The notes: a model not told the origin generated them from the sequence alone. A DNA stretch of 64,000 nucleotides from an uncultured Eubacteriales bacterium (GCA_964449165.1 CAYVAT010000013.1:407-64406), one strand, 5' to 3'. Counted from the first letter of the stretch, positions 11,156 through 51,376 are shown. Numbers and translations are program-made.

Positions 11156-12265
11156 ATGACTAAGATGTTGAAAATAGATAAAGCGATTTCAGACGGGACC
11201 AGAGATTTTCTGCGCTATCTTCTGGACAGCAAGAACGTGCGTAGTGTGGCAGTGCTGAGGAGAGATAGGACGTCTGGCTGGGTCAGCTACAGCCTGATCT
11301 CTGATCCGGAAAAGATAGAGGAAGCGGTCCCTTTTTCTCCGGTCATGCCATACAACGCGGGTGAGTATCTCTCTCGCCTCACATCCAAGGGACCGTTCGA
11401 TAAGCCTGTTGCGGTGGTATTGCGTCCATGCGAACAGCGAGCGTTTGTGGAGCTTGTAAAACGACAGCAGGGCAGTTTGGACAATATCATAACAATCAGT
11501 TCGGTTTGTCCGGGAGTTTATCCTTTGAAAACATTTGTTCGTGAGAACGAGGACAAGCTGTTTAAGGATTACTGGTCGGTGGTAGCTGATGGAAAACAAC
11601 CTGAGGGGATCCGGGACACGTGTTCGTTCTGTGAGCATTTTGTTCCGGCTGAAGCCGACATTGTCATACCCATAGCAGGCGAGAAGGATACGGGCAAAGA
11701 ATGCAAATTGTTCGCGAATACCGAAAAGGGAGCTGAACTACTGAAGGGGATAGATGGGAAAATACAGGAATCTGAACTGGAGACAAAAGGAACCGAAGCT
11801 ATCCGGCAGTTGCGGAAGGAAAACGAAGAAAAGATGCTGGCCGATCTGGGGAAAAAGTTATCGGGATTAGATGGGCTGGTAGAAATGTTCAGTACGTGCA
11901 TTGGCTGTCATGGATGTCGGTCGGTTTGCCCGATTTGTTACTGCCGCTTATGTGAATTTGATTCTTCTCGAAGTGAATACGAGGCACGAAAATATGAAAT
12001 CGAACTGCGCAAGAAGGGGGGCGTAAGAATACCCCCGGGCTCCATAGCCTTTCAGATAGGTCGGATGATCCATATAGGCCTTTCCTGTGTGAGCTGCGGG
12101 ATGTGTAGCGACGTGTGTCCCGCCGATATCCCGGTTGCAAATATTTTCAGGAAAGCGGGAAAGGCGGTCCAGGATGTGTTCGAATACATTCCTGGAAAGG
12201 ACCTTGAGGATAGTATCCCTGTCACGACATTTGAAGAAGAGGAATTGAGAAGTGTTGAGGATTAA
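11156..12265 (+). CDS. FrhB/FdhB/FpoF-family protein, paralog 2
   Basis: RPCEQRAFVELVK; CIGCHGCRSVCPICYCRLC; CVSCGMCSDVCPADIP. It aligns with paralog 1 throughout. Confidence 0.65.
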   Translation: MTKMLKIDKAISDGTRDFLRYLLDSKNVRSVAVLRRDRTSGWVSYSLISDPEKIEEAVPFSPVMPYNAGEYLSRLTSKGPFDKPVAVVLRPCEQRAFVELVKRQQGSLDNIITISSVCPGVYPLKTFVRENEDKLFKDYWSVVADGKQPEGIRDTCSFCEHFVPAEADIVIPIAGEKDTGKECKLFANTEKGAELLKGIDGKIQESELETKGTEAIRQLRKENEEKMLADLGKKLSGLDGLVEMFSTCIGCHGCRSVCPICYCRLCEFDSSRSEYEARKYEIELRKKGGVRIPPGSIAFQIGRMIHIGLSCVSCGMCSDVCPADIPVANIFRKAGKAVQDVFEYIPGKDLEDSIPVTTFEEEELRSVED

Positions 12266-12729
12266 GAGGGTGGTGAATCAGATTTTATTATCTTTGTTAT
12301 TTCATCTACAATTCCCGGAATTTTACTTTTTACCCCAGGAGTACATTCCTCGCCAAACGTAGTATTATCTTCTATTTCTATTGCATAAATTTCAATAATT
12401 TGAGGTATTTTATATCCCAGCTTCCTTCCGAGTTCAATTGCAGTTCTAATATTCACTCCATGTGAGTATGATGGAGTTGAAAAAGTGCCTATATCTTCCA
12501 GGTTTAGTTTGTAAAGGGTGCCAGGTGTTTCTTTTTCTGTTTTTATGGAGTCGATGATGATAAGTCTCTCGTATTCACCAATATAGTCAAGCAGTGAAAT
12601 TCCCGCCAGACTTGTTTTTATCACTTCAATATCAGGAAGGGAAAGTTTCTCTATCTCATTTGCCACACAGATGCCTACCGAATCATCTGTCAGAATTGGG
12701 TTTCCAACTCCCAATATAAGAGTTTCCAT
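12262..12729 (-). CDS. [NiFe] hydrogenase maturation endopeptidase (HycI/HybD/FrhD family)
   Basis: ILGVGNPILTDDSVGICVANEI...IIIDS is typical of hydrogenase C-terminal processing proteases. It sits directly downstream of the large subunit. Confidence 0.8.
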   Translation of the reverse strand: METLILGVGNPILTDDSVGICVANEIEKLSLPDIEVIKTSLAGISLLDYIGEYERLIIIDSIKTEKETPGTLYKLNLEDIGTFSTPSYSHGVNIRTAIELGRKLGYKIPQIIEIYAIEIEDNTTFGEECTPGVKSKIPGIVDEITKIIKSDSPPS

Positions 12730-12786
12730 TTTTGAAGACGGGAAATATCAATCCACAGTAATGAGCGTGAAGAGATCGAAATATTT

Positions 12787-14250
12787 TTACGACCTTCTGA
12801 TAGTGTCTATTATATTCGCTTTATGATCTCTAATGTTGACTTCGAGAGGCATATGCCCGGGCAGTGAATGAGTAGCACAGGCAAGGCAAGGGTCATATGC
12901 ACGGAATGCCATTTCTACCATGTTAAGTAATCCCTCAGATACCTTTCCCTCCTTTATGAGCCCTTTTGCCGCTTTCTCTATTGACATACATATCGAAGCA
13001 GCATTGTTAACTGTAGCAACAATTAAATTGACGTCTGTAAGAACACCTTTATCGTCTGTCTTGTAATGATGATAGAGAGTACCTCTTGGTGCTTCTACTA
13101 CGCCAATCCCTTCATCAGGAACAGCGGTTGGGATACTTCTAACATCGGGGTCGAGAATTTCCTCGTCCTGGGCTAACTCCAAAAGCCTTTCAGCTGCATA
13201 GAGAAGCTCCACTAGCCTTGCCCAATGATAGGCAAGAGTGTTGTGTGCTGGCTTACCACCCAAGATATTATACATTTTTTCATATTCTACTTGAGCCAGT
13301 GGCGTTGCCATACCATCGGACGCATTGAGTCTTGCAAGAGGAGCTACTCGATAAACTCCGCTGTCCTTTCCATCAACGAATCCCTTCCAGCCGACACCTT
13401 TAAGATATGGAAATTTTATGTAGCTCCACGGCTCAACATGCTCCTCAATATGATTCAGATACTCCCGAGACTTAAACTTGGCAAACTCCTTACCTTCAGG
13501 GTCAACTACTCTAATATCTCCGTCATAAAAATTGACTTTATTGTTCTCATCAACAAGTCCCATATAATATGTTTTGTGTTTGTAAATATCTCCCACAATG
13601 ACATCTACATACTCTTTGTTTTTGAGAACAATGTCTTCAAAAGCTTTCAAAGCGAATTTGGCAAATTCTATCGCATCTTTCCCTATTTGGATATATTCTT
13701 CTCTATCTTCTTTGGTAACCCCCTTGGATACACCCCCAGGAAGATTACATACGGGGTGAATAACCCTGCCTCCCTGCTTTGTAATGATGTTGCGCAGCCG
13801 CTTTCTGATATCTATAACCTTCTTGCCCGCGTCAAGACCAACTTTCTGAATGACTCCCAAAATATTCCTCTCTCCTGCGGGTGCCTGTGGTCCAACAACA
13901 AAATCAGGTCCCCCAAGGAAGAAGAAGTGGAGAGTATGGTCTTCAGCCATGAAAGCAGAATTAATAAGCTCTCTTATCTTCTTGGCCGGTGACGGAGGGG
14001 TTACATGGAACAAATCATCAAGCGCCTTGCCAGATGCCATATGATGGGTAGTGGGACATACGCCACATATCTTGGGAGTGATTCTCGGCATTTCCTCTGC
14101 CATGCGTCCTTCAGAAAATTTCTCAAATCCCCTCAGCTCAGGAACTTGAAAAAAAGCCTTCTCCACATTTCCCTCGTTATTAAGAAATATTTCTATCTTC
14201 CCATGACCTTCAAGCCTTGTTATTGGGTCTATCGTTATTCTTTTTGCCAT
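12787..14250 (-). CDS. mvhA: [NiFe] hydrogenase large subunit, Mvh/group-3c-like
   Basis: N-terminal RLEGHGKIEI and PKICGVCPTTHH; C-terminal DPCLACATHSLPGH (the Ni-Fe ligating CxxC pair); RBS AGGGAGA. Confidence 0.85.
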   Translation of the reverse strand: MAKRITIDPITRLEGHGKIEIFLNNEGNVEKAFFQVPELRGFEKFSEGRMAEEMPRITPKICGVCPTTHHMASGKALDDLFHVTPPSPAKKIRELINSAFMAEDHTLHFFFLGGPDFVVGPQAPAGERNILGVIQKVGLDAGKKVIDIRKRLRNIITKQGGRVIHPVCNLPGGVSKGVTKEDREEYIQIGKDAIEFAKFALKAFEDIVLKNKEYVDVIVGDIYKHKTYYMGLVDENNKVNFYDGDIRVVDPEGKEFAKFKSREYLNHIEEHVEPWSYIKFPYLKGVGWKGFVDGKDSGVYRVAPLARLNASDGMATPLAQVEYEKMYNILGGKPAHNTLAYHWARLVELLYAAERLLELAQDEEILDPDVRSIPTAVPDEGIGVVEAPRGTLYHHYKTDDKGVLTDVNLIVATVNNAASICMSIEKAAKGLIKEGKVSEGLLNMVEMAFRAYDPCLACATHSLPGHMPLEVNIRDHKANIIDTIRRS

Positions 14251-14329
14251 TTTATCTCCCTTTTCCTCAAAGTGATGTAAATTGTCTTATAAACTTAACA
14301 AACAATAAAAAATTGCTCCAAGCATTCAT

Positions 14330-15310
14330 CTATGCCATTCTCTTCCTTTTTAACAGCGAAGAAGGCAAACTATACATATAGAAAAGACCTGCCGGATCTA
14401 CTATCTGGTCGATTAACTTCTTCGTGTCTTCCTCTGTCATCTTCTCTTCTTCTTCCACGCCTATTATGGATGCAATTGCTGATAATCCTTTTGCCCCCTG
14501 GTCTACTACTTCCTTTGTCGGTCCAAAACATCCGCGACACGGCATATTTGCATTTATGCATCTCTCACCACAGCCGCTCCTGGTTACAGGGCCTAAGCAG
14601 ATAAGCCCTTCTTCTAAAAAACACTTCTCAGGGTCTGGTATTATCTCGTAGGGTCTCTTTATTTCCTTTATTGAGAGTTTATCCGGTTTTGTCTCTCCAC
14701 GTGGGCAAGTTTCACACAAGGATTTATCAGGTGCGAGAACTGCTCCCTTTTCGGGAAGCTTACCTTCCAATATAGCTGTTACCGCATTCATAATTAAATC
14801 TGGTGGCGGTGCACATCCAGGAAGATAATAATCAACATCGATTGTCTGGTCCAGTGTCTTGACTGTATCATAGAACTCAGGAAGCGTAAGCTCACCCTCA
14901 GGAATATTTGTTTTTTGTTGTGGCACTATCCCATTGGGGTTTGCTATAGAGGGTACTGTCTTGTAAACCCTCGTGAAAATTGTTTCCCTATTCCAAAAAT
15001 TTGCAAGCCCTGGTATTCCACCTAAATGAGAACAGGACCCAAACGCGACTACAAGCCCAGATTTCTTTCTCAATAGTTTCACCATCTCTTCCTGTTCTTC
15101 TGTTCTAATAGCACCGTTTATGAAACTCACTGCTATTTCTCCATCGCCCATCGCCTCCACATCCTTTTTCTTAAAGTCCAGTGCGACTGGCCAGAACGCT
15201 ATATCCACTGCCTCCACTACTTTTAATATATCCTCATTAAGGTCGACAATAGCTTCCTCACATCCACCACATGAAGCGCACCAATAAAATGCTACTTTTG
15301 GTTTAGCCAT
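14330..15310 (-). CDS. mvhG: [NiFe] hydrogenase small subunit, Mvh/group-3c-like
   Basis: VAFYWCASCGGCEE at the N-terminus (proximal cluster), with further Cys motifs. RBS AGGAGG. Positioned between mvhD and mvhA. Confidence 0.8.
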   Translation of the reverse strand: MAKPKVAFYWCASCGGCEEAIVDLNEDILKVVEAVDIAFWPVALDFKKKDVEAMGDGEIAVSFINGAIRTEEQEEMVKLLRKKSGLVVAFGSCSHLGGIPGLANFWNRETIFTRVYKTVPSIANPNGIVPQQKTNIPEGELTLPEFYDTVKTLDQTIDVDYYLPGCAPPPDLIMNAVTAILEGKLPEKGAVLAPDKSLCETCPRGETKPDKLSIKEIKRPYEIIPDPEKCFLEEGLICLGPVTRSGCGERCINANMPCRGCFGPTKEVVDQGAKGLSAIASIIGVEEEEKMTEEDTKKLIDQIVDPAGLFYMYSLPSSLLKRKRMA

Positions 15311-15348
15311 AATTGCCTCCTTCTAAAATAGACATCATTTCTACTTAT

Positions 15349-15750
15349 TTAGGATAATTCTAGGGGACCTAAATTTTTTACAGTTTCTGCCATTTCATTT
15401 GCTACTTTTGCAAATCTCTCTCCTTCGCCTGCTGCAACCCAGTCCAATCTAACTCTTTCTTCTTCAATCCCCAGCTGCTTCAGGGTATTCTTCAAAAGAT
15501 GTGCTCTCCGAAGTGCCTTATAGTTTCCTGTTTTGTAATGGCAGTCCCCGGGATGGCATCCTAAAATTAACACTCCGCTTGCGCCCTCTTTTAATGCTTG
15601 TATCACAAGCTCTGGATCTACACGACCGCTGCACATAACCCGAACGATTCTTACATTCGCAGGATAATTCAATCGTGCGCCCCCAGCCTTATCTGCTCCT
15701 TCGTATGAACACCAATTACATAGAAAACTAACGATTGTTGGCTCATTCAT
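15349..15750 (-). CDS. mvhD: MvhD ([2Fe-2S] subunit linking hydrogenase and HdrA)
   Basis: TIVSFLCNWCSYEGADKAG...RVMCSGRVDP...GCHPGDCHY; RBS AAGGGGG; 4-nt overlap with the hdrA stop. Confidence 0.8.
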   Translation of the reverse strand: MNEPTIVSFLCNWCSYEGADKAGGARLNYPANVRIVRVMCSGRVDPELVIQALKEGASGVLILGCHPGDCHYKTGNYKALRRAHLLKNTLKQLGIEEERVRLDWVAAGEGERFAKVANEMAETVKNLGPLELS

Positions 15751-17669
15751 CTTACTACCCCCTTAATTTCAGCAAATATTTGCTCCTTTGTGAAGTGCTT
15801 TGCTCTCGCTGCACCCGACGGACAGGCTGATACACAAGTTCCACACCCTCTACAAAGAGTCTCATCTACAACTGCAATCTTTTTTTCTACATCCCGAGAT
15901 ATGGCAGAGTATGGACATAGAACAATACATACGTTACAGCCACTGCATAAATCTTCACTTATCTCTGATACCTTTGCTTCTAACTCAAGTTTTTCACCAG
16001 GTATAAGTCTTGAAAGTATTCTTCCTGCAGCGGCTCCTCCTTGAGCCACTGCATCTCCAATATCCTTTGGTCCCTGACAGCTCCCTACTGCAAAAACGCC
16101 TTCAAGTGCTGTAGCAAAAGGCTTCATCAATGTGTGCTCCTCAGCAAAAAAGCCCTGGTCATCTCTGGCTATATCAAGGAGTTCGGCTATTTTTTCAGTA
16201 TCTTCGTTAGGCTCAACTGCAGGTGCAAGTACTACCATATCTACGGATATCTCTTTTCCATTTGTTCCCACTTTTATTTTTTCTCCTTCATCAGTAACAG
16301 TCACATCCTCTCCACTTCTTATAAACTCTATACCTTTCTCCACAGCCTTCTTATGCATCATTTGATGTTCTTTCTTCGGAAGACATAGGTCAGTATAGAA
16401 GTGATGCATCTTTACCGCGGGCAATTTTTCTTTCATAAGATGGGCCAAGGTGAGTGAATACATACAGCATATGCCTGAGCAATAGCCCTTCTCTTTCCTG
16501 CCAACACAGTGAATGAAAGCTATGGATTTTGGCTCCTTCCCGTTCTTTAATTGAATCTTCCCTCCTGTTGGTCCATTTGAGGCATTCAACCTCTCTAATT
16601 GCATGGCTGTTAATACATTGTCATATTTTCCATATCCATATTGAGGAAGTTCTTTGGGATCAAAAAGTGCAGAGCCCGTAGCTAAAATAATTGCACCTAC
16701 GTTCTTCTCAATTGTCTTGTCCTCGTCATCATAATTAATGGCGTCAAAGGAACAACTTTCTTTGCAGATGCTGCATTCCTCTCCCTTGAATCTCTTGCAG
16801 TTATTCTTATCTATGACAGGCACATTAGGAAGACCACCAGCGAACGGAATATATATTGCTTTCCGGGATGACAATCCCTCATCATATTCATTGGGCACTT
16901 CCACAGGACACGGCTCAAAACATGCATCACATCCAATGCAGGCTTCTTCGTTTACGTATCGGGCTTTCTTCTTAACCTTGACAGTGAAATTCCCAAACGA
17001 CCCAACAACTTCCTCTAGCTCGCTATAAGTGAATGCTTCTATATTCTCTTTTTGAAGGACTTCTTGCAGTTCAGGTGCTATCATGCAAGGTGCACACTCC
17101 AAAGTTGGGTAAACTTCTTCAAATCTTGCTGTAAGCCCACCAATACAGGGGCTCTTTTCCACGAGATAGACCTTCCTGCCCTTCTGTGCGAGTGATAGAC
17201 ATGCCTCTAATCCAGCTACCCCTCCCCCTACTACTAGAACATCAGGCTGAATATCAATTTCCTTTTTCTCTATAGGTTCTTGTAAAGAAGTCCTGTTTAT
17301 TGCAGCTATAACAAGACTTTTTGCTTTTTCAGTTGCAGCAGATTTTTCAGCGGTAACCCAGGCACACTGCTCCCTTATGTTCGTCATCTGCATAAGATAA
17401 GGATTCAGCCCTGCTTCCTCACAAGCCCTCATAAATTTAATCTCGTACTGCTTTGGAGTGCAGGCAGCAATCACAACTCTTGAAAGCTTCTCATTCTTTA
17501 TTTCTTCTTTGAGAAATTTTAGCCCTTCTACTGAACACAGGAGATTATGACTCTTTGCCACTGCTACATCCTCGATGCCCTTTACTTCATTGGCAATAGC
17601 ATCTACATCTACCTTGTCTCCTATGTTTGGTCCACATTTACACACATATACGCCTATCTTTTCAGCCAT
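15747..17669 (-). CDS. hdrA: Heterodisulfide-reductase subunit A-like flavoprotein, canonical full-length HdrA architecture
   Basis: IGVYVCKCGPNIG, VLVVGGGVAGLEACL, inserted ferredoxin CIGCDACFEPCP/CSICKESC, IHCVGRKEKGYCSGICCMY, C-terminal CSGCNVCIVLCP/CRGCGTCVSACPSG; RBS AAGGAGG. Confidence 0.85.
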   Translation of the reverse strand: MAEKIGVYVCKCGPNIGDKVDVDAIANEVKGIEDVAVAKSHNLLCSVEGLKFLKEEIKNEKLSRVVIAACTPKQYEIKFMRACEEAGLNPYLMQMTNIREQCAWVTAEKSAATEKAKSLVIAAINRTSLQEPIEKKEIDIQPDVLVVGGGVAGLEACLSLAQKGRKVYLVEKSPCIGGLTARFEEVYPTLECAPCMIAPELQEVLQKENIEAFTYSELEEVVGSFGNFTVKVKKKARYVNEEACIGCDACFEPCPVEVPNEYDEGLSSRKAIYIPFAGGLPNVPVIDKNNCKRFKGEECSICKESCSFDAINYDDEDKTIEKNVGAIILATGSALFDPKELPQYGYGKYDNVLTAMQLERLNASNGPTGGKIQLKNGKEPKSIAFIHCVGRKEKGYCSGICCMYSLTLAHLMKEKLPAVKMHHFYTDLCLPKKEHQMMHKKAVEKGIEFIRSGEDVTVTDEGEKIKVGTNGKEISVDMVVLAPAVEPNEDTEKIAELLDIARDDQGFFAEEHTLMKPFATALEGVFAVGSCQGPKDIGDAVAQGGAAAGRILSRLIPGEKLELEAKVSEISEDLCSGCNVCIVLCPYSAISRDVEKKIAVVDETLCRGCGTCVSACPSGAARAKHFTKEQIFAEIKGVVR

Positions 17670-17733
17670 CGTTCCTCCTTATTATTTGAATTTTGACACT
17701 CCTCAATTGCGGCCATCTTCTGTATTTAATTAT

Positions 17734-17755
17734 CTTGATAATTAGATATATCAAG
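17734..17755. promoter_or_regulatory. Inverted repeat CTTGATA-N8-TATCAAG between the ArsR-family gene and hdrA; candidate operator
   Basis: A perfect 7-nt inverted repeat, read directly, about 65-85 nt upstream of the hdrA start codon and immediately downstream of the ArsR-family gene. Confidence 0.4.
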
Positions 17756-17763
17756 GGGAATAA

Positions 17764-18042
17764 TTATCTTTTTAATATTTGTAAGATTTTAACAACACGC
17801 TTATCAATAACTTTATAACATACTTCTACTCCCTTTTTGCTTCCATCAATTATACCTCTGTTCCTTAATATCTGAAGGTGCTGAGAAATTGTAGGTTGAG
17901 GAATGCCTAATATTTTCTGTATTGAACTAACGCTACATCCTTCATTGTGGAGTCCTAATAATAGCAGCTCTATTATTTGCAGACGTACAGGGTGAGCGAA
18001 TGCTTTCAAGAGCTCACTTTCATCCTTGTATTTATATTGCAT
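17764..18042 (-). CDS. ArsR/SmtB-family transcriptional regulator
   Basis: 92 aa; HPVRLQIIELLL...SVSSIQKILGIPQPTISQHLQILRNRGII is a winged-helix ArsR signature. Confidence 0.8.
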   Translation of the reverse strand: MQYKYKDESELLKAFAHPVRLQIIELLLLGLHNEGCSVSSIQKILGIPQPTISQHLQILRNRGIIDGSKKGVEVCYKVIDKRVVKILQILKR

Positions 18043-18350
18043 TTGTGGAAAGAACCATTATTTGACAGAGTATAATAACATAGTGAAACTTCTGCGTCTT
18101 ATATGCATCATTTCTTTTAACCGCATATTTAAATATATAAATAATGCAGTGTCAAGGGAAAAAATAATACATATGGGATTGTGTTATTTGTGAATCTAAA
18201 AAAGAGGTCCAGGATATGATGCGGAAATTCAAAAATGCTGGCTTTGAAGAAGAATTTATGAACCTAATGTTATATATCCCGTTTCTTAAAAAACAGGGGT
18301 AATACTTCCTCGGAAGTAAAAATCTTTACTAAAGAATTTGTTATTATATA

Positions 18351-19895
18351 ATGGTATCAGATGGAGAAATTGGTTTGAGACAGGAAGATAAAGTAACAAA
18401 AGAATTCTTAGAAAATATCTTAGAGAGCATGGAAGGGGGAGTGCTTACTGTAGACAAAAATGGCAGGATCACCTCGTTTAACCGTTCTGCTGAGGAAATT
18501 ACTGGTTTCAAGAGAGAGGAAGTACTGAATAAGGAATGTTGTCATATTCTTAAGACCGATCTCTGTGAAGAATTATGTCCTTTAGAAGAGATCTTAAAAG
18601 TTGGAAAGACAGTCCACAATTATGAGATTATGATTGCCAGCAAAGATGGGAATAAGGTTCCTGTAAACATAACGACTTCAGCATTACGATCCAGCAATAA
18701 TGAGATAATTGGCGCTATAGAAAACTTCAGGGATTTGACCAAACATAAAGGATTATGGGGGAAGCTGCGCCAGGAAAGAAACAAAGCACAGCAGTACCTC
18801 AACATTGCGGGAGTTATAATCATTGCTATTAATGACAAGGGAATAGTCACCCTTATCAACAAGAAGGGGTGCGATGTCTTGGGTTACAGAGAAGAAGAGA
18901 TCATCGGTAAAAACTGGTTTGATTTATGTGTTCCTGAAGCAGAGAAAAAAGAAAGAGAGGATACTTTTAAAAAAGTGATGGCAGGAAAAATACAGGAAGC
19001 TGAAGACTACGAAAACTCAATTCTGGCTAGATCTAGTGAGGAAAGGATTATCGCATGGCACAATACGACACTCACAGATGAAAAAGGTCATATCGTTGGC
19101 ACTCTTAGCTCAGGAGAAGACATCACCAAGCGCAAACAAACAGAGGAAGAATTGATCAGATCTGAAAAACTAGTCTCTTTAGGTCAGCTAGCTGCCAGCG
19201 TTGCTCACGAAGTGAATAATCCATTGGCCGGTATTATGGTTTATATCAAGCTTCTTATCAAGAAGTATAAAGAAAAGAAACTGCAGACAGGAAAAACTGA
19301 AGAGCAGCTTTTGAAAATGGAAAAAGAACTGGATAGGACTACCCGAATAATCAGAAATCTTCTCGATTTCGCCCGCCAATCAGAACCGGCCATAAGACCA
19401 GTCGAAATAAATAAAGTAGTAGAAGCCGCTTTGTTATTAGTCGGACATCAAATCAGCCTTGAAAACATAAAGCTCGAGAAGGAATTAGATACTGAGCTTC
19501 CTCTTGTTCTTGCGGACTTTGATAAAATCCAACAGGTATTGATAAACATCATCATGAACGCGATTCAGGCGATGCCTGAGGGGGGCAACTTGACAGTCTC
19601 TACATCGGTTGCTAAAAACGTTAAAATCAATCAGTTTCTCAAAGATACTGTTAGGATTGAAATCAAGGATACAGGAGTGGGAATTCCCAAAGAAAACTTA
19701 AGCAAACTTTTTACGCCTTTCTTCACTACTAAAGAAAAAGGCAAAGGTGTGGGGCTAGGACTCCCTGTTGTTCATGGAATTATTGAGCAGCATAAGGGAA
19801 AGATAGAAGTAGAAAGTGAACCCAACATAGGTACAGCATTCACGATATATCTGGAGGTAATGAATGAGGAAAAAGACAAAAATACTCGTAGTTGA
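18351..19895 (+). CDS. Cytoplasmic PAS-domain sensor histidine kinase
   Basis: Two PAS-like segments, then the H-box SVAHEVNNPLAGI and an HATPase region with N/G boxes (NAIQAM, DTGVGIP, GKGVGLGL). No TM segment. The Cys cluster ECCHILKTDLCEELCP lies in the first PAS. Confidence 0.8.
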   Translation: MVSDGEIGLRQEDKVTKEFLENILESMEGGVLTVDKNGRITSFNRSAEEITGFKREEVLNKECCHILKTDLCEELCPLEEILKVGKTVHNYEIMIASKDGNKVPVNITTSALRSSNNEIIGAIENFRDLTKHKGLWGKLRQERNKAQQYLNIAGVIIIAINDKGIVTLINKKGCDVLGYREEEIIGKNWFDLCVPEAEKKEREDTFKKVMAGKIQEAEDYENSILARSSEERIIAWHNTTLTDEKGHIVGTLSSGEDITKRKQTEEELIRSEKLVSLGQLAASVAHEVNNPLAGIMVYIKLLIKKYKEKKLQTGKTEEQLLKMEKELDRTTRIIRNLLDFARQSEPAIRPVEINKVVEAALLLVGHQISLENIKLEKELDTELPLVLADFDKIQQVLINIIMNAIQAMPEGGNLTVSTSVAKNVKINQFLKDTVRIEIKDTGVGIPKENLSKLFTPFFTTKEKGKGVGLGLPVVHGIIEQHKGKIEVESEPNIGTAFTIYLEVMNEEKDKNTRS

Positions 19896-21231
19896 TGATG
19901 AAGATATAGTAAGAGAATCACTCCGCGATTGGCTGAGCAGTGTTGGCTATAAAGTGGAAATTGCCTCCTCTGGAGAGGAAGCCCTCCGGATAATCAAACA
20001 GAAAAAGATCAAAATTATGCTTGCTGACCTCATCATGCCGGGCATGGACGGTATCGAACTGATGAAAAAGGCAAGAGAAATAGTTCCAACACTCTCAACG
20101 GTCATTATAACAGCCCATGGAACGATTCAAACAGCGATAACCGCGATCAGAGAAGGCGCTCATGATTACGTAGAGAAGCCGTTCTGCCCGGAAAAGGTCG
20201 AACTTATCATAAAGAATCTGGTGGAACATCAGGATCTGGTTGAGGAAAATATATCTCTTCGGCGGAAGATTGAAGCAAGATTCCACTTTGAGGGCATCAT
20301 CGCAAAGAGCCCCAAGATGTTGAAGATAATTGAACTTATTAAAACAGTAGCGCCGACTAATGCCACCATACTGATTATTGGGAGAACCGGAACGGGCAAG
20401 GAAGTCATTGCACGGACTATTCATCATCAAAGTCCGCGTCGAAGCAAACCTTTCATCGCCACAAGTTGCGCATCCCTTCCGGAAAGTCTGCTGGAAAGTG
20501 AACTTTTCGGCCACGAAAAGGGCTCTTTTACAGGGGCAATAGGAAGAAAAAAAGGCAAGTTTGAAGCTGCAGACAGAGGCACTTTATTCCTTGATGAAAT
20601 AGGCGAGATAAATCCCAACACCCAGATCCATCTCCTAAGAGCACTTGAGGAGAAGAAAATTACCAGAGTGGGTTGTAATGAAGAAATTGGTGTTGATGTA
20701 CGTATCATTGCTGCCACAAATAGAGATTTGAAAACTATGGTTGAGCAGGAGAAATTCAGAGAGGATCTGTATTACCGGTTGAATGTGGTAACTATAGACC
20801 TCCCTCCGCTTAAGGATAGGATGGAGGATATTCTACCGCTGGCAGAGCATTTTTTGAAGAAGTATGCTCAAGAAAATAATAAAAGCATCAAAAAATTTTC
20901 TCCTGAAATAGTAGAATTTATGCTGAATTATTCATGGCCTGGTAATGTTAGAGAGTTAGAGAACATGATCGAACGCGGTGTGATTATATCGAAGAATACG
21001 ACAATCACTCTGGGCGAACTTCCACATGAAATTATTCACCCAGCTCCTAAAGAAGGAAAAACCATCGAGGCGGTCGAGAGAAATCACATCATTAGTGTGC
21101 TCGAAGAGACAAAAGGCAATGTTTCAAAGGCAGCTAAGATACTCGGTATTCGGCGGACGACCCTTTATAACAAGCTGAAAAAATATAATTATACTGTCCA
21201 TAAATTAGACACGAATTGTCCAATTAATTAA
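19864..21231 (+). CDS. Sigma-54-dependent response regulator (NtrC family: receiver, AAA+, HTH)
   Basis: KILVVDDEDIV receiver; Walker A GRTGTGKEV; ESELFGHEKGSFTGA (GAFTGA motif); C-terminal HTH AAKILGIRRTTLYNKLKK. Confidence 0.85.
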   Translation: MRKKTKILVVDDEDIVRESLRDWLSSVGYKVEIASSGEEALRIIKQKKIKIMLADLIMPGMDGIELMKKAREIVPTLSTVIITAHGTIQTAITAIREGAHDYVEKPFCPEKVELIIKNLVEHQDLVEENISLRRKIEARFHFEGIIAKSPKMLKIIELIKTVAPTNATILIIGRTGTGKEVIARTIHHQSPRRSKPFIATSCASLPESLLESELFGHEKGSFTGAIGRKKGKFEAADRGTLFLDEIGEINPNTQIHLLRALEEKKITRVGCNEEIGVDVRIIAATNRDLKTMVEQEKFREDLYYRLNVVTIDLPPLKDRMEDILPLAEHFLKKYAQENNKSIKKFSPEIVEFMLNYSWPGNVRELENMIERGVIISKNTTITLGELPHEIIHPAPKEGKTIEAVERNHIISVLEETKGNVSKAAKILGIRRTTLYNKLKKYNYTVHKLDTNCPIN

Positions 21232-21341
21232 CACCTTTTCATTTTTTGGCCATTCTTCGGCAATCTTGTCCTTTATCATAAATCATTTATTTTTAGAGCG
21301 TTAGCGCTTTTCCTAAAAAAATTTTTGAACTGCGTCTATTT

Positions 21342-21357
21342 TGGCACGCTGCTTGCA
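21342..21357 (+). promoter_or_regulatory. Sigma-54 (-24/-12) promoter
   Basis: TGGCACGCTGCTTGCA is an exact match to TGGCAC-N5-TTGCA, about 100 nt upstream of the receiver gene at 21458 and downstream of the NtrC-type activator. Confidence 0.7.
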
Positions 21358-21457
21358 CTATAAATGAAATGAGATGACTAATTCCAATAGGATAGTCACT
21401 GTCGCCAAAGCTGTCCTGGTGGAAATTGACTAAAAAAACAAAAATTGGAGGTTAACA

Positions 21458-22252
21458 ATGAAAAAAGAAACTATGTTGGTTGTAGAAGATGAGGATATTA
21501 TGCGGGAGGCATTATCCGATTACTTCTCTGACGGGGGCCATAAAGTTGATACCGCCAATAATGGGGATAACGCATTGGAAAAATTTAATTTAGAAGATTA
21601 CAACGTCATGATAGTCGATCTTAAATTACCCGGGCGTGATGGGCTTTCCGTGCTGAAGGAGATTAGAGCGAAGAATCCGAAGGCAAAAGTTATTATCATC
21701 ACGGCTTATCCCTCGATTGATACTGCAAAAGAGGCTATACGTGGTGGTGCGCTTGACTACTTACCAAAACCTTTTGAGCTGGACTATCTTGAAACCATAA
21801 TCAACCGATCTTACGAAGTTGAAATAGTACCTACACCGCCTGTTGAAGAACCAATAGTTGAAGAGAAAATTGTAACTCCATGCATCTGGATGCAAGCTGG
21901 CTTAGTAAAAAAACGGATGTGTACGCTCGGTTATCAATGCAATAATGCGTGTAAGTTTCATGCAGCAATGATGAAAAAAGAGGAATTCAGGAATGATCCA
22001 AGGATTAAACCTTTTCTTGACAAACTTAACTCTCAAATAGGAAGGAAGCAGTGCAGATATACTATGAGTGGAGAAATTGCTCTGCGATCCTGCGATAGGC
22101 TTTACCGCTGCGAGAGCTGCGAATTTCACCAGACAATCGAGGATGAGGTAGACCGCCAACTTGCCATTAAGGCCGCAAATCAAAAAAGGAAGCAGGCCAA
22201 AATGTATGGCCGGGTGGCAACGATGCATAGTCCATCCCGAAGTGACCACTAA
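21458..22252 (+). CDS. Response-regulator receiver protein with a C-terminal cysteine-rich domain of unknown function
   Basis: CheY-like receiver (LVVEDEDIM...DLKLPGRDG...YLPKPF). The ~130 C-terminal residues carry about 10 Cys (CIWMQ...CTLGYQCNNACKFH...CRYT...SCDRLYRCESCEFH) and no recognizable DNA-binding motif. Confidence 0.65.
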   Translation: MKKETMLVVEDEDIMREALSDYFSDGGHKVDTANNGDNALEKFNLEDYNVMIVDLKLPGRDGLSVLKEIRAKNPKAKVIIITAYPSIDTAKEAIRGGALDYLPKPFELDYLETIINRSYEVEIVPTPPVEEPIVEEKIVTPCIWMQAGLVKKRMCTLGYQCNNACKFHAAMMKKEEFRNDPRIKPFLDKLNSQIGRKQCRYTMSGEIALRSCDRLYRCESCEFHQTIEDEVDRQLAIKAANQKRKQAKMYGRVATMHSPSRSDH

Positions 22253-22455: not shown

Positions 22456-22989
22456 TTATTTTCTATCTTTTTTTAGATTTTCCCTAATCATTCTTATCCC
22501 GTCAGGAGAATTGATAGGCATCTCCTTGAGCTGAGCCTTTATTTTTCTTGTGTCTAAATAGAACTTGTAGCTATTCTTTTTGTGGACATAGATTAAATCT
22601 ATTTCAGGATTCCCCAAAATAAGAGTTATGATTGTTTGTCCAATATCACCCAAAGGCTTCCGGTCGATATGGCTGTGCTGGAAATCGGCTTTGACTTTAG
22701 TCCCTTCTCCCTTTTTGGATTTTATGGAGAGGTGACCATTTGCTGCATTGGCGGCTTGTGATAAGAGAGACAGTCCTAGGCCAAATCGGCGAACCGTTTT
22801 AGAAGTGTAAAAGGGATCAAGCACCTTTTCCATGGTTTGCTTATCCATACCCATACCGTTGTCGGTGATTTCGATAGACAGAAAATCTTTCTCTTTGTCT
22901 TCTTTTATCCTTATTTCAATCTTATCGGCTTTGGCTGCCACAGAATTTTCGACGATGTCTAGAATGTGCAAAGAGAGATCTTCCATCAA
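22456..22989 (-). CDS. Small GHKL-type ATPase (anti-sigma-factor/Ser-kinase-like HATPase_c protein)
   Basis: LHILDIVENSV...ITDNGMGMD...GLGLSL are the N, G1 and G2 boxes of a histidine-kinase-like ATPase lacking a DHp domain. Confidence 0.6.
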   Translation of the reverse strand: MMEDLSLHILDIVENSVAAKADKIEIRIKEDKEKDFLSIEITDNGMGMDKQTMEKVLDPFYTSKTVRRFGLGLSLLSQAANAANGHLSIKSKKGEGTKVKADFQHSHIDRKPLGDIGQTIITLILGNPEIDLIYVHKKNSYKFYLDTRKIKAQLKEMPINSPDGIRMIRENLKKDRK

Positions 22990-23012
22990 AACCTCAGCCT
23001 GGATTATTCAGG

Positions 23013-23744
23013 TTAGTGAATTAATTTTCTCCCATCTTCATTTTTCAAGGCTTTTTTTATTTCGGCCACTGTGCCGTCCTTGAGCAAGAATGATGTAAAG
23101 CTTTTTCCGATATCATCGGGATAATGGGCATCTGAAGAGCAGGTGATCGGATAATCCTTTGAATACCTTTTCTTTGCCTCTTCGGAAGTGATTGCAGGAG
23201 AAATTTCTAAAGCATCCAATTCCAAATTATCCGGGATGAACCCCAGTTGGCCGATGATGCTGAAAGATTCTCTATCTATATGGGAGGCGATCGCTATTCC
23301 GTCGAGAGAGTGAATGATTTTGATGATTTTTTCAAGAGGAATAGTCGTAGCTCCAATCAAGAGTTTATTATTGAAACCAAGCACTTCCTCTTTTTCATTC
23401 ACGATGACTTGCATCCCGAAGGCTTCTTCATCATTTTCTCCAGGCAACTTATCATAGACATGCTCCTGCAGTTTTAGAGCGTTTTCTATTTCGTCAAAAA
23501 GTGCCAAGACATGAACTTCTTCTTGAGAGGTCACTTCCATCCCGGGGAAAACATTAATATTCATCTTCTTGGCAGCGTTCATTATGGCCAGAGAATTTTC
23601 AGATGAATTATGATCACAGATGCCTATGATATCTATTTTTTTTTTCTTTGCCGCCTTGAGTATTCTCTTTGGAGACATATCCAGTTCAGTACAGGGAGAA
23701 AGGCAGGTGTGGATATGCAAGTCCGCTTTGAAAGGTCTGAGCAT
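23013..23744 (-). CDS. PHP-domain metal-dependent phosphoesterase
   Basis: ADLHIHTCLSPC...IIGICDHN fits the PHP (polymerase/histidinol-phosphatase) His-rich motifs. Confidence 0.65.
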   Translation of the reverse strand: MLRPFKADLHIHTCLSPCTELDMSPKRILKAAKKKKIDIIGICDHNSSENSLAIMNAAKKMNINVFPGMEVTSQEEVHVLALFDEIENALKLQEHVYDKLPGENDEEAFGMQVIVNEKEEVLGFNNKLLIGATTIPLEKIIKIIHSLDGIAIASHIDRESFSIIGQLGFIPDNLELDALEISPAITSEEAKKRYSKDYPITCSSDAHYPDDIGKSFTSFLLKDGTVAEIKKALKNEDGRKLIH

Positions 23745-23747
23745 GAA

Positions 23748-24089
23748 TTAATCTTTTAAACTTATCAATTCATACAATTTACCCGAAACTTCAAAGGCCA
23801 TTTCTTCACTGCCAAGGAGGGGCAAATTTTCCTCCTTTGCTTTTTGAAGCGTGTTTTCATCAGGTTCTCGGTTATTGACTATGATTATTCCAGACAGGTC
23901 TTTCAGTTTGGCCACAGCGATAATATTCTGATGGGTCTGAAGAGTGATCCAGAGATTGTTTTCTTTGCTGTTGGCAATCACATCACTAAGAAGATCGCTC
24001 GTGTATCCACTTGTAACCTCTACATCCAACTTATCTTGGCCTGTCAAAACTTTAAGCTGTAATTTTTCAATGATCTCTTTAAGTTTCAT
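23748..24089 (-). CDS. DRTGG-domain protein
   Basis: 113 aa resembling the DRTGG/CBS-associated domain (TSDLLSDV...LWITLQTHQNIIAVA), and paralogous to 25905-26270. Confidence 0.5.
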   Translation of the reverse strand: MKLKEIIEKLQLKVLTGQDKLDVEVTSGYTSDLLSDVIANSKENNLWITLQTHQNIIAVAKLKDLSGIIIVNNREPDENTLQKAKEENLPLLGSEEMAFEVSGKLYELISLKD

Positions 24090-25462
24090 TTTATCGCCTT
24101 TCCTTTTTTGCTTGTTTTATTGACGGTAGACTTGGATTGAGTTAAAAAAGCAGATTTATTAAGCAATTTTGAAAATTCTTGGGTGAGTTTTTTTAACCTT
24201 CGGGGAAGATTGAAAATACAGTCAGTGAGTTCTGCTTCTCCTTTAACCACGTCTTCAGCAAAGGTTAAGCAAGTGGGAGCACCACATGCTCCGCAGTCAA
24301 TTTTGGGCAGTGATTCGTAGATATCCTCTTTTTCTTTTCTCTTCTTTATTGCTTTGGCTAAATCTTTATCGAGAGGTTTGAGGGGGCGGGGCTCCAGTTT
24401 TCCATCTAAGAAAAAGTATTTCTGGTTATAGAGCTTTCGTACCTCCCTGATGTCTGGACAAGCTTTTATTTGTTCGAACTCTAAGGTCTCGATCAATTTC
24501 AGAATTTTGTTGTAAGAAATATAAATATTTTGCACTGTCAAAGAGCCTCCGACACACCCTTGAGGGCAAGAATAGGCTTCGACGAAGTCAATGTTTCTCA
24601 GTTTTCCTCTTTCAATATCATCAAAGACTTTTAAGATTTCAGCTAGACCTGAAACAGCCAGGGAGTTTTTCATTCTCAAGGTTCGGCAGATGCCTCCAAC
24701 CATTGCCCATCCAATTCCCAGAATGCAGATGCTCTCCAGTGCTTTCCGGTAGCTGCCTTTTTCTATGCCTTCCATAGCCGAAAGAAGAGGTGGGTAAATG
24801 TCTGAGATAGAGATGGCTCCGTCTATGTAAGATTTCCCTCTTTCTGCAGGCTGTCTGATAGATATCATTTTCACCGGGCATGGTGTGAGATAAAAGATTC
24901 CGATCTCTTTTTCTTTAAGTTTTAGTTGTTTTGATTTTTCCTTTTTGATTTCTCGAGCAGCCAATTCTCGTGGAGTATCAATGGGTATAACTTGGTCGAT
25001 GAGGCCTGGATATTTGACCTGGATTAAACGCACGATAGTCGGACATACATTAGAAATAAGCGGCTTGGGACCCTTATATTCTCGGAGATATTCCTGGATG
25101 GCGAAACTAACTTCTCCGCAGGTAAACGCCAGGTCAAAAGCATCATCGAATCCCAGTTTTTTTAATCCGACGAGGATTTTCTCTGGCAGAATTTCTCTTC
25201 CGAATTGAGCATATAGAGCAGGAGAGGGCATGGCAACTGTGTGGCGGAATTTAGTGAGTTCTCCAAAGGGATCTGTCAAAGGGATGATGGCGTTGTGAGG
25301 ACAAACTGTGATACATTCTCCACAATCGATACATTTTTCTTCGATGATGGTTGACTTTCCATTTCTGATCCTGATGGCTTGAGTGGGACACACCCGCAAA
25401 CATTTCATACGGCCATGACACTTTTCCGGATCAATCCGGATGGAATGAAAGTATTGATTCAT
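24086..25462 (-). CDS. [FeFe]-hydrogenase-like protein with degenerate H-cluster motifs, an N-terminal 2x[4Fe-4S] ferredoxin and a C-terminal CxxCx4C..C Fe-S domain; probably sensory or non-catalytic
   Basis: CHGRMKCLRVCP and CIDCGECITVCP. H-domain motif equivalents: L1 NVCP (versus TSCCPxW), L2 TPCPVKM (versus MPCxxK), L3 EAYSCPQGCVGG (versus ExMACxGGCxxG). The C-terminus CGACGAPTC...C resembles the RnfB-type Fe-S domain. Confidence 0.6.
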   Translation of the reverse strand: MNQYFHSIRIDPEKCHGRMKCLRVCPTQAIRIRNGKSTIIEEKCIDCGECITVCPHNAIIPLTDPFGELTKFRHTVAMPSPALYAQFGREILPEKILVGLKKLGFDDAFDLAFTCGEVSFAIQEYLREYKGPKPLISNVCPTIVRLIQVKYPGLIDQVIPIDTPRELAAREIKKEKSKQLKLKEKEIGIFYLTPCPVKMISIRQPAERGKSYIDGAISISDIYPPLLSAMEGIEKGSYRKALESICILGIGWAMVGGICRTLRMKNSLAVSGLAEILKVFDDIERGKLRNIDFVEAYSCPQGCVGGSLTVQNIYISYNKILKLIETLEFEQIKACPDIREVRKLYNQKYFFLDGKLEPRPLKPLDKDLAKAIKKRKEKEDIYESLPKIDCGACGAPTCLTFAEDVVKGEAELTDCIFNLPRRLKKLTQEFSKLLNKSAFLTQSKSTVNKTSKKGKAIK

Positions 25463-25908
25463 TTTTTTTCTGTTTTATCCAGGCAGATCGTTATCTCTAA
25501 TGACGTTCCTTTGCCAGGGATTGAAGAAATTTCAAATTTATCAGCATTTTTTTTAATATTGGGAAGTCCCATGCCTGCGCCAAATCCCATCTCTCGCATT
25601 TCCTCGGTGGCGGTCGAAAAACCTTTCTCCATGGCCAAATCTACATTCTCAATCCCAGGACCTTCGTCTTCGAGCTTAAAATGAAGTTTCTCAGGAGTAA
25701 TGTTCAGAGTGAGCACACCTCTGTGAGCATACATAACAACATTCATTTCTGCCTCATAGGAGGCGATGGCTGCACGGACGATGACAGAATGGTCGATACC
25801 AATCTCCTGGAGAATTTCTTTGATACTTGTGGATGTCCTTCCTCCATTGCTGAAATCACCGCCTTTGATTTCAAAGCGATGAGATAATTTATTCTTGTCG
25901 CTCATCAT
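25459..25908 (-). CDS. Small GHKL-type ATPase (HATPase_c-only protein), paralog of 22456-22989
   Basis: LEDEGPGIENVDLAMEKGFST...GFGAGMGLPNIKK (G1/G2 boxes). The likely start is MMSDKNK, since the ORF-track N-terminus overlaps the upstream DRTGG gene. Confidence 0.55.
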   Translation of the reverse strand: MMSDKNKLSHRFEIKGGDFSNGGRTSTSIKEILQEIGIDHSVIVRAAIASYEAEMNVVMYAHRGVLTLNITPEKLHFKLEDEGPGIENVDLAMEKGFSTATEEMREMGFGAGMGLPNIKKNADKFEISSIPGKGTSLEITICLDKTEKK

Positions 25909-26270
25909 CGTTTTTTTGGGGAGAGGCCACTTACACCTGGAAGACCATGACTGAAGAGAAGGCCACAAGCTGTGTACATCATGTATTTGGTTAATAGAAG
26001 GGGGATTCTTTTTTCTCTGGCTAGCTCGATTCCCGTTTTATCTGGCTTTTTGCCCCGGACATACACAATAGCTTTGGCATCTATTATATTTGCTGTCCTG
26101 ACAGATTGAGCATTGGATAAACCAGTCAGAAGCAGAATTCCTGGTTTACCAAAAGCTAAGACATCGCTCATCAGGTCAGATCCTCCTGCAAATTTGATTT
26201 CCATGTCAAGACAGTCAATTCCGCTGATGACCTCAGCCTGAAGGAGTTCCTTGATTTCTTTTAAGGTCAT
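25905..26270 (-). CDS. DRTGG-domain protein
   Basis: 121 aa; SDLMSDVLAFGKPGILLLTGLSNAQSVRTANIIDAKAIVYVRG is paralogous to 23748-24089. It is the first gene of the minus-strand cluster. Confidence 0.5.
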   Translation of the reverse strand: MTLKEIKELLQAEVISGIDCLDMEIKFAGGSDLMSDVLAFGKPGILLLTGLSNAQSVRTANIIDAKAIVYVRGKKPDKTGIELAREKRIPLLLTKYMMYTACGLLFSHGLPGVSGLSPKKR

Positions 26271-33439: not shown

Positions 33440-33770
33440 ACTTCTTTTTTACTCTTAGAAACTGCGTATTGCAAGTGATTTAGGGAGAAGGCTGCTCGAG
33501 TCTTTCCTTATCTTTAAACTCGGTGGTTTGAAGGTTTCGGTTGATTTGTTTCTCTTTTCTGGATGTTGACCTTGCCTTTTTGGAATGTGATACTCTTATT
33601 TCTGGATGTCAGTGGATAGAAATTATAGAAAATTGAAATTCTTTAGGTGAATACACATGTCCTGAAAAGATTACAGTCTTGTATAGAGGAGACAGGTATA
33701 GGCTCTAATCAATTCTGGCATGAGATTTGCTGAAGGAATAAGCAAAGGTGACTCGAGCTGGAAAAATTGA

Positions 33771-51113: not shown

Positions 51114-51376
51114 CTTATGACCTCTCTACAGAATTTTATGCATAATAGCCTGACATGAGATAAAAGTCAATATCTGAAATATTATTACCAAATAAATGGT
51201 AGCAAAATATGTGCCAAATTTAAATCTCGGCTTGGCGAGGATGGATAGGAACCGGAGCTGTGTCTAATTATATCCCTCATCATAGAAATGGATGTTTCCT
51301 TCTCTATCATTGAGATAGAGATGTTTCAACTCTTACCTTTTTGGACTTTTTAGATGACATTGTATAGAATGAGTCC

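Follow-up and report, generated by a model that had tools for sequence, protein, structure and literature searches.

The 64,000-nt stretch of DNA analyzed here (hereafter, the window) comes from an uncultured Eubacteriales bacterium (GCA_964449165.1, CAYVAT010000013.1:407-64406), and its positions 18,351 to 22,252 encode a sensor histidine kinase, an NtrC-type sigma-54 activator, and a receiver protein with an eight-cysteine C-terminal domain, which we call REC-CYS and CYS, respectively. The succession of kinase gene, activator gene, sigma-54 promoter, and CYS gene proved to be a widespread cassette of anaerobe genomes and metagenomes, often located beside Hdr/Mvh-type or Nuo/Mrp-type operons. 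We hold with high confidence that the window is wired from kinase to activator, palindrome, promoter, and REC-CYS. That the whole operates as a two-tier, sigma-54-dependent two-component cascade, whose sole local target is a second signaling protein, is the reading we favor, with slightly better than even confidence. The overall type, a two-component sigma-54 cascade, is a known one; the conserved cassette centered on a new eight-cysteine signaling domain is apparently undescribed.

Organization of the module in the window

The kinase was recognized by its Pfam domains (PAS_9, 1e-30; HisKA, 1e-14; HATPase_c, 9e-28), and the activator gene shares its first 32 nt with the kinase gene, the two genes being translationally coupled (Table 1). 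The activator matched Response_reg (2e-28), Sigma54_activat (2e-71), AAA_lid_14, and HTH_8 (2e-17), and its GSFTGA motif, a variant of the sigma-54 contact loop, and its ESELFG motif are encoded at 20494-20538. The original prediction, made from the sequence of the window alone, had named an NtrC-type activator here, and the receiver, the Sigma54_activat domain with its GSFTGA loop, and the Fis-type helix-turn-helix (HTH) were all found. The activator scored under the AtoC, ZraR, and NtrC equivalog cutoffs of NCBIfam, and no named orthologue was assigned.

The promoter element TGGCACGCTGCTTGCA, at 21342-21357 on the plus strand, has its GG and GC 10 bp apart in a TGGCAC-N5-TTGCW context and lies approximately 100 nt ahead of the REC-CYS ATG. 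Exact matches to TGGCAC-N5-TTGCW occur twice in the window, compared with 0.04 expected from shuffled sequences. The element had been described as a textbook -24/-12 promoter in front of one gene, and this description stands, in that the match is exact and is kept in all four of the related loci described below (L001-L004). The REC-CYS gene is called monocistronic because the next gene downstream (22456-22989, minus strand) is convergent; a consensus scan found no terminator 3' of the REC-CYS gene. A ribosome-binding site, GGAGG, is present at 21447-21451, and in the 5' untranslated region (21368-21470), the predicted hairpin was not significant (z = -1.6).

A palindromic candidate enhancer, or upstream activating sequence (UAS), precedes the -24 element by approximately 130 bp and lies within the 3'-terminal part of the activator coding sequence. 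Its TAGAC and TGTC columns are invariant across five loci, and GACA-N5-TGTC has its sole occurrence in the window at this position. In other loci, the palindrome straddles the activator stop codon, and the distal half-site is kept there, though it is non-coding. Judged from their sequences, the palindrome and the promoter together have the anatomy expected of an enhancer-dependent sigma-54 promoter, and we infer that the palindrome is bound by the adjacent activator.

The receiver of REC-CYS corresponds to Response_reg at residues 7-115 (E = 7e-28 in Pfam), and its best receiver matches in NCBIfam are AtoC and NtrC. It carries E10/D11, D54, T82, Y101 (the aromatic switch), and K104, and all 49 REC-CYS proteins compared share D11, D54, T82, and K104. 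With all of its phospho-acceptor residues kept, the receiver is, as far as sequence can tell, competent for phosphorylation. It is also NtrC-like, with scores of approximately 100-120 bits when compared with the activator receivers of all loci.

In the first PAS domain of the kinase (PAS1), ECCHILKTDLCEELCP spans residues 62-77. The conserved core of this motif is C-x8-C-x3-C-P (C63, C72, and C76), whereas C64 is not kept in relatives; in other words, the intra-PAS cysteine cluster of the original prediction is present, but only three of its four cysteines are conserved. The core was found in the kinases of L001 and L003 and in 10 more kinases of related cassettes. Going by textbook PAS topology, the motif would be placed at the cofactor-pocket helices.

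TABLE 1 Positions of the features in the window
Feature	Position	Strand	Basis
ArsR-type HTH, HdrA, MvhD, MvhG-like, [NiFe] hydrogenase large subunit, HycI protease	12262-18042	-	Pfam
Sensor histidine kinase, 514 aa, cytoplasmic, PAS-PAS-HisKA-HATPase_c	18351-19895	+	Pfam
PAS1 cysteine motif, C63-C64-x7-C72-x3-C76-P77	18537-18581	+	Sequence and relatives
NtrC-type sigma-54 enhancer-binding response regulator, 455 aa, REC-AAA+(GSFTGA)-HTH_8	19864-21231	+	Pfam
Candidate enhancer (UAS), TGTC-N9-GACA-N5-TGTC	21195-21220	+	Conserved columns
Sigma-54 promoter, -24 TGGCAC / -12 TTGCA	21342-21357	+	Consensus and conservation
REC-CYS, 264 aa, receiver (1-121), Pro/Glu linker, 8-Cys domain, basic C-terminal helix	21458-22252	+	Pfam, NCBIfam
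Cys4 unit 1, C142-x12-C155-x5-C161-x3-C165-x-F-H	21881-21961	+	Invariant alignment columns
Cys4 unit 2, C199-x12-C212-x5-C218-x2-C221-x-F-H-Q	22052-22132	+	Invariant alignment columns
[FeFe]-hydrogenase-like sensor cluster with HATPase, PHP, and DRTGG proteins	22456-26270	-	Pfam
Two HATPase_c proteins	22456-22989, 25459-25968	-	
PHP phosphoesterase	23013-23744	-	
DRTGG protein	23748-24089	-	
Stand-alone [FeFe]-hydrogenase-like protein, Fer4 + Fe_hyd_lg_C + PF04060	24086-25462	-	
Small open reading frame, no Pfam match	25905-26270	-	

Recurrence of the cassette in related genomes and metagenomes

Full-length relatives were sought in one genome per species across 185,579 species, and only four full-length REC-CYS relatives were obtained (L001-L004), from two Aminicenantes metagenome-assembled genomes (MAGs), one Phycisphaerales chromosome, and one 96%-identical contig that probably belongs to the same species as the window. 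In L001 and L003, the trio of kinase, activator, and receiver genes is intact amid unrelated flanking genes, and the kinase orthologue lies immediately 5' of the activator. The DNA between the activator and the receiver has diverged in the related loci except for two islands, the -24/-12 element (TTGGCAY-N5-TTGCA) and the enhancer palindrome. The Phycisphaerales locus, L003 (CP070806.1, 3356979-3377767), has its trio between a sulfatase gene and a gene for a secreted thioredoxin-like protein, with no Hdr genes near it. Since trio, promoter, and enhancer occur otherwise in Aminicenantes, this locus suggests that they were horizontally transferred as a unit.

For a wider comparison, 80 metagenome loci were taken from more than 542 matching stretches by means of a narrower alignment (A6), and this sample represents one part of the family. 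A sigma-54 site was defined as GG-N10-GC with at least six of seven further consensus positions, between -300 and +60 of a gene start. Such a site was present at 56 of 73 CYS family genes, versus 6 of the 405 other open reading frames (ORFs) of at least 150 aa in the same loci. The 80 loci encode approximately 45 REC-CYS proteins and approximately 33 proteins in which CYS is joined to a GcvH-like domain (CYS-GcvH), and the same gene order of kinase, REC-AAA-HTH activator, and CYS gene was seen in almost all loci whose upstream DNA was long enough. Each subfamily has palindromes of its own 90-150 bp ahead of the promoters, TTGACCA-N5-TGGTCAA and GTTGAA-N3-TTCAAC being two examples, which is what would be expected if every activator recognized a separate site. 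The pattern extends to distant members with approximately 35% identity, since the P0026 gene is preceded by a gene for an NtrC-type activator and by TTGGCATACCTGTTGCT, and the P0023 gene, which has TGGAAC-N5-TTGCT upstream, is flanked by kinase genes and an activator gene. Furthermore, P0033 and the GcvH-fused P0025 have -24/-12 elements 12-32 nt ahead of their starts. Roughly half of the sigma-54-controlled CYS members have no receiver.

The window has the three components that define the cassette, namely a CYS domain with the eight invariant cysteines, a sigma-54 promoter, and an adjoining kinase and NtrC-type activator. The claim that the activator drives the sigma-54 promoter of a second receiver protein is supported by the conserved promoter and palindrome, by the intact trio, and by the contrast between 56 of 73 and 6 of 405 genes.

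In five of the metagenome loci (L115, L122, L125, L133, and L156), a gene for a short sigma-54 paralogue is found 105-161 nt 3' of the REC-CYS gene. The encoded proteins, of 366-388 aa, have Sigma54_DBD as their only Pfam domain and a region-I-like N terminus, and a second kinase-activator pair comes after the paralogue gene in all five loci.

A new eight-cysteine domain in many architectures

All eight cysteines of REC-CYS (C142, C155, C161, C165, C199, C212, C218, and C221) are in the CYS region, and the receiver has none. The cysteine-rich C terminus of the original prediction was thus borne out, but its estimate of about 10 cysteines was not, as eight were counted. They fall into a tandem duplication of C-[IV]-W-x3-G-x6-C-x5-C-x2/3-C-x-F-[DH]-Q, and we regard the duplication as internal to the domain because the profile region for unit 2 also matches unit 1 in many proteins. 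The eight cysteines and one tryptophan are invariant in an alignment of 42 diverse CYS domains.

A word-indexed search with the C-terminal region gave 18 close relatives, and when 1.84 billion cluster representatives were searched with a profile, 156 were obtained at E ≤ 0.001, which puts the family at no fewer than 156 clusters (50% identity). In 65 members examined with Pfam, CYS was followed by a GCV_H domain in 36 and preceded by a receiver in 15; a few had TPR, and in one member, P0067, HisKA/HATPase is joined to CYS, which takes the sensor position. Occurrence of the family is apparently restricted to sediment metagenomes and MAGs of anaerobes, and source annotations of its members read "hypothetical protein" or "response regulator."

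Residues 125-264 of REC-CYS had no match in Pfam or NCBIfam, even at E ≤ 10, beyond sub-threshold noise, and no HTH was found. There was no match between the CYS region and known response-regulator outputs (OmpR, NarL, LytTR, or Fis HTH; ANTAR; GGDEF/EAL/HD-GYP; CheB; PP2C), and comparison with Fer4, CCG, the PF04060 FeS domain, WhiB, zf-HC2, and zinc ribbons gave no profile, sequence, or fold match. Sequence-profile searches of PDB with narrow and broad CYS alignments returned nothing meaningful, a Foldseek search of PDB with the AlphaFold2 model of the domain returned no match, and full-text literature searches found neither the CYS domain nor the cassette described. The original prediction had failed to recognize the cysteine-rich domain, had seen no HTH in it, and had named a C-terminal match to a known DNA-binding or enzymatic family as a finding that would speak against it; the Pfam, NCBIfam, and PDB searches all agree with that account.

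When the CYS domain was modeled by itself from the 42 diverse sequences, AlphaFold2 gave a mean predicted local distance difference test (pLDDT) score of 82. The model consists of a short strand, a cysteine, a loop, C-x2-C, and a helix, twice over, and then a long C-terminal helix; the basic helix comes after the last CxxC of the domain. Full-length REC-CYS, modeled from a shallow alignment of 19 sequences, had a mean pLDDT of 66, with values under 50 in Cys unit 2.

GcvH has the GCV_H fold and carries a lipoylated lysine in an E-S-V-K-A-type motif. In the GcvH-like partner domains, the GCV_H matches fell under the NCBIfam equivalog cutoffs, and the lipoyl-lysine column, placed from an E. coli reference sequence, was occupied by N, R, Q, F, or M in 35 aligned domains. 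The possibility that these partners are true lipoate carriers was rejected on account of the missing lysine. Five of the CYS-GcvH proteins (P0025, P0028, P0038, P0049, and P0056) have an extra N-terminal segment of approximately 50 residues with 4-6 more cysteines, of the form MKCPFLEE-x3-V-x-YC-x-A-x-P-x-(R/K)K-x-IP...C...C, that had no Pfam match. The REC-(TPR)-CYS proteins P0033, P0044, and P0054 end in a Trp-rich tail, WWWSYWS or WWWPYWS, which is possibly a membrane or partner anchor.

Proteins with a single Cys4 unit, 72-98 aa in length, also exist (P0197-P0223). The 98-aa single-unit protein of L170 (7001-7297) is adjoined by a sigma-54 site, a GcvH-like gene, an activator, and a kinase. 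The 72-aa single-unit proteins of L168 and L169 have no sigma-54 site, GcvH-like gene, or kinase-activator neighbors, and may form a separate subgroup. In L081, an 89-aa ORF (1955-2233) separating the sigma-54 promoter from the REC-CYS gene resembles a truncated receiver start fused to one Cys4 unit.

Hydrogenase, Hdr, and redox genes around the cassette

Divergent from the kinase gene, the Hdr/Mvh operon of the window begins with a 92-aa ArsR-type HTH gene. The intergenic region between the two (308 bp within 17764-18350) is AT-rich and has a TTGACA-type -35 box and no sigma-54 element. In L001, HdrA and MvhD genes immediately precede the trio. In approximately 22 of the metagenome loci, the downstream genes on the same strand encode HdrD-like (Fer4 plus two CCG), HdrB-like, HdrA-like, and MvhD proteins, some of the HdrA-like proteins having an NfnB/GltD-like insertion, and in approximately seven loci, genes for Mrp/Nuo antiporter-like and NuoB-like subunits are located downstream of the CYS gene.

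On the other side of the module, the cluster at 22456-26270 looks like a putative sensory-hydrogenase partner-switch module. Its stand-alone hydrogenase-like protein, encoded 1.8 kb downstream of REC-CYS, aligned over its full length with the sensor half of kinases from related cassettes (BLASTP E = 1e-33). The sensors of the partner kinases are of four classes, of which one is [FeFe]-hydrogenase-like (Fer4 + Fe_hyd_lg_C + PF04060) and fused to the kinase, and another is a single PAS domain with G-K-x-C-x8-C-x3-C-P, a motif shared with the window kinase. The third and fourth classes are a multi-pass membrane sensor and sCache-HAMP. Hydrogenase-fused kinases of approximately 650 aa with HisKA/HATPase were seen in L108 (1910-3868) and about 20 other loci (e.g., L089, L093, L107, L121, L129, and L136), and are candidate H2- or redox-sensing kinases. 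The flanking Hdr/Mvh genes, the approximately 22 Hdr-type loci, the hydrogenase-like sensors, and the PAS cysteine motif give circumstantial backing to a redox theme.

Two further sigma-54 elements were noted in the window, one with a single mismatch, TGGCAT (33716-33731, plus strand), and one exact (51201-51216, minus strand). They lie approximately 40 and 90 nt upstream of ORFs 33771-35885 (704 aa) and 49923-51113 (396 aa, with a weak TPR-like signal), respectively, neither of which belongs to a Pfam family. Because neither element has GACA-N5-TGTC, both are probably controlled by other activators.

Proposed mechanism and alternative explanations

We propose that a redox or metal signal in the cytoplasm is perceived by the kinase through the C-x8-C-x3-C-P motif of PAS1, and that the kinase then phosphorylates the activator, which would bind 21195-21220 and open the sigma-54 promoter. 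REC-CYS would be made only when the pathway is on and would then itself be phosphorylated, probably by the same kinase; its production and its activation together would thus constitute an AND gate. The CYS domain is expected to hold two Cys4 metal sites, of either the Fe-S or the Zn/Fe-thiolate type, and metal binding as such is likely, given the eight invariant cysteines, the two Cys4 units, and the knuckle-plus-helix secondary structure. The domain would be a sensor or partner-binding module and not an enzyme or a classical HTH output, a role favored because CYS precedes the GcvH-like domains in the fusion proteins and, in one kinase, occupies the place of the sensor. The domain would relay its signal through contact with another protein. 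That partner could be the activator or the kinase, in which case CYS would serve as an inducible co-regulator, or else the neighboring hydrogenase/Hdr machinery. Output by protein contact rather than by nucleic-acid binding is a possibility to which we assign somewhat less than an even chance. We advance only tentatively, and with some doubt, the more specific proposal that CYS is an Fe-S or metal-thiolate redox switch, the dedicated output of H2/redox-sensing sigma-54 systems that tune Hdr/Mvh and Nuo/Mrp complexes; such a switch would contact the activator, sigma-54, RNA polymerase, or the energy complexes themselves.

Several observations weigh against the cascade as we read it. The 64-kb window contains no rpoN gene. 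When the REC-CYS receiver was tested for co-evolution with the activator receiver of its own locus, no same-locus bias was detected, and for this reason the shared kinase is unproven. Within the window, neither the Hdr/Mvh array nor arsR has a sigma-54 site or UAS before it; the original prediction had suggested looking for sites before the Hdr array, and none was there, so that direct control of Hdr by the window activator was rejected for the window. In addition, the basic C-terminal helix of REC-CYS fits a second-tier regulator that binds nucleic acid at least as well, and the same is true of an arrangement found in one lineage. There, in ten loci (REC-CYS-hdrD spacers of L119:6358-6696, L103:6376-6661, L110, L128, L139, L157, L159, L137, L105, and L108), REC-CYS ends in its own hairpin terminator before an hdrD-like operon that has a sigma-70-like promoter, TTGCC-N17-TGTTATACT. 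The hdrD leader, approximately 100 nt long, contains a terminator-like hairpin, GGGTAGCTA...TAGCTACCC, with a T-run and compensatory changes. The hdr operon could be controlled by attenuation at this leader, which matched no Rfam family, its hairpin not being a known riboswitch. When the window and eight related loci were compared with Rfam, only tRNAs were found. The loci with the leader hairpin belong to lineages distant from the window.

According to the corresponding explanation, REC-CYS is a zinc-ribbon-like, second-tier regulator that is induced by the sigma-54 system and activated by phosphorylation, and that, with a contribution from the basic C-terminal helix, binds nucleic acid to control sigma-70 hdr/mvh operons or to antiterminate at leader hairpins. 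Control of this kind would connect a sigma-54 input with sigma-70 operons in the way that Nac does downstream of NtrC, and ANTAR regulators offer the parallel for antitermination at leader hairpins. Besides the ten loci with their terminator, sigma-70-like promoter, and compensated leader hairpin, this explanation is in keeping with the REC-CYS and CYS-GcvH genes directly upstream of hdrD/hdrB/hdrA/mvhD operons in approximately 22 loci, with a receiver typical of transcription factors, and with the position of the basic helix C-terminal to the last CxxC. However, the placement of CYS N-terminal to GcvH-like domains (36/65) and in a kinase sensor position would be unusual for such a regulator, the domain matched none of the known families or folds that bind DNA or RNA, no candidate operator or leader was identified in the window, and the leader hairpin is missing in L119. 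It is the strongest of the alternatives and has genuine support, but we consider it rather unlikely. The role of a redox-active Hdr/Mvh accessory is less likely than that of a nucleic-acid-binding regulator, and we regard it as improbable; CYS would be an electron carrier, a DsrC-like dithiol/disulfide substrate, or an assembly factor, which the receiver or GcvH-like domain merely tethers or regulates, and the sigma-54 system would co-induce a component of the energy machinery. The eight invariant cysteines, the apparent restriction to anaerobes, and the frequent Hdr, Mvh, and Nuo-like neighbors agree with such a role, as do the GcvH-like fusions, since GcvH-like carriers serve the Hdr-like systems of sulfur oxidizers (PMC6067878). 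Against it, the GcvH-like domains here have no lipoyl lysine, a full receiver is unexpected on a structural redox subunit, and the gene is transcribed apart from hdr where this is visible; many loci, L003 among them, have no Hdr genes nearby, and the family is invariably partnered with the kinase-activator pair rather than with Hdr. Less likely still, and in our view very improbable, is a pure phosphate sink, in which REC-CYS would be a decoy that drains the kinase in negative feedback and the cysteine region would be a structural zinc module. An NtrC-like receiver whose gene is induced by its own pathway would suit this function, but the conserved element of the family is CYS and not the receiver, from which approximately half of the members are free, and the retention of eight cysteines and their flanking residues over deep divergence argues for a function of CYS itself.

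Relation to known systems and implications

The cascade that we favor has counterparts among known regulatory systems. In HoxBC-HoxJ-HoxA (HupUV-HupT-HupR) of Cupriavidus and Rhodobacter, a separate [NiFe]-type H2 sensor, a kinase, and an NtrC-family regulator have hydrogenase operons as their output. The resemblance is that a hydrogenase-like sensor feeds a kinase and an NtrC-type regulator, the sensor being fused to the kinase in the related cassettes here; in contrast, the present cassettes use [FeFe]-hydrogenase-like or PAS-Cys sensors and have a CYS-domain protein as their conserved output. Regulator genes induced by sigma-54 activators also have precedents, in that PspA feeds back on the sigma-54 activator PspF and Nac relays the NtrC signal to sigma-70 promoters, and the adjacency of activator and target in the cassette resembles that of pspF and pspA. 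However, PspA and Nac are unrelated to REC-CYS in sequence and fold, and neither has a receiver or a Cys-rich domain.

Small cysteine clusters serve as oxygen or redox sensors in the PAS [4Fe-4S] kinase NreB, in FNR, in WhiB-like (Wbl) proteins, which bind a sigma factor, and in zinc anti-sigma (ZAS) domains. Their spacings are C-x2-C-x11-C-x2-C in NreB, C-x2-C-x5-C in FNR and Wbl, and H-x3-C-x2-C in ZAS. The module differs from all of these, with C-x8-C-x3-C in the PAS domain, where the NreB-type spacing was not found in PAS1 of the kinase, and two copies of C-x12-C-x5-C-x2/3-C in CYS, and no profile or fold match connects them. There is also some likeness to the LbpA/GcvH proteins of Hdr-like sulfur oxidation (PMC6067878), in that many CYS relatives carry a C-terminal GCV_H fold, some of them beside Hdr-like genes; nevertheless, the lipoyl-lysine position is not conserved, and the window protein has a receiver in place of the GcvH-like domain.

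On the basis of architecture and context, we take the closest studied system to be DVU2394/DVU2395 of Desulfovibrio vulgaris Hildenborough, in which, according to two reports, a sigma-54 activator controls the adh-flx-hdr operon DVU2405-2397 (PMC3333781, PMC4641369). Both systems comprise an NtrC-type regulator with a GSFTGA loop variant and a paired kinase, occur in an anaerobe, and are tied to Hdr-type energy genes. DVU2394 targets the enzyme operon itself, and its mapped site is a direct repeat, whereas the window system targets one regulatory gene through a candidate inverted repeat, and its Hdr/Mvh operon, unlike the hdr operon controlled by DVU2394, has no sigma-54 site. Where they treat DVU2394, these reports make no mention of a Cys-domain protein (PMC3333781, PMC4641369).

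Little is known about how bacteria, as distinct from methanogens, regulate flavin-based electron-bifurcating Hdr/Mvh modules, the one mapped case being the DVU2394 regulon. The present cassette offers a handle on H2/redox signaling to energy-conserving complexes that comprises one small protein, one promoter, and one candidate enhancer. CYS is a new domain family for protein databases and a new class of output, or of second input, for response regulators. Furthermore, a sigma-54 promoter and a CYS domain beside a kinase-activator pair provide a search rule for regulons in uncultured anaerobes such as Aminicenantes. If the tentative view of CYS as a redox switch is true, the domain would represent a previously unrecognized regulatory layer of anaerobic energy metabolism.

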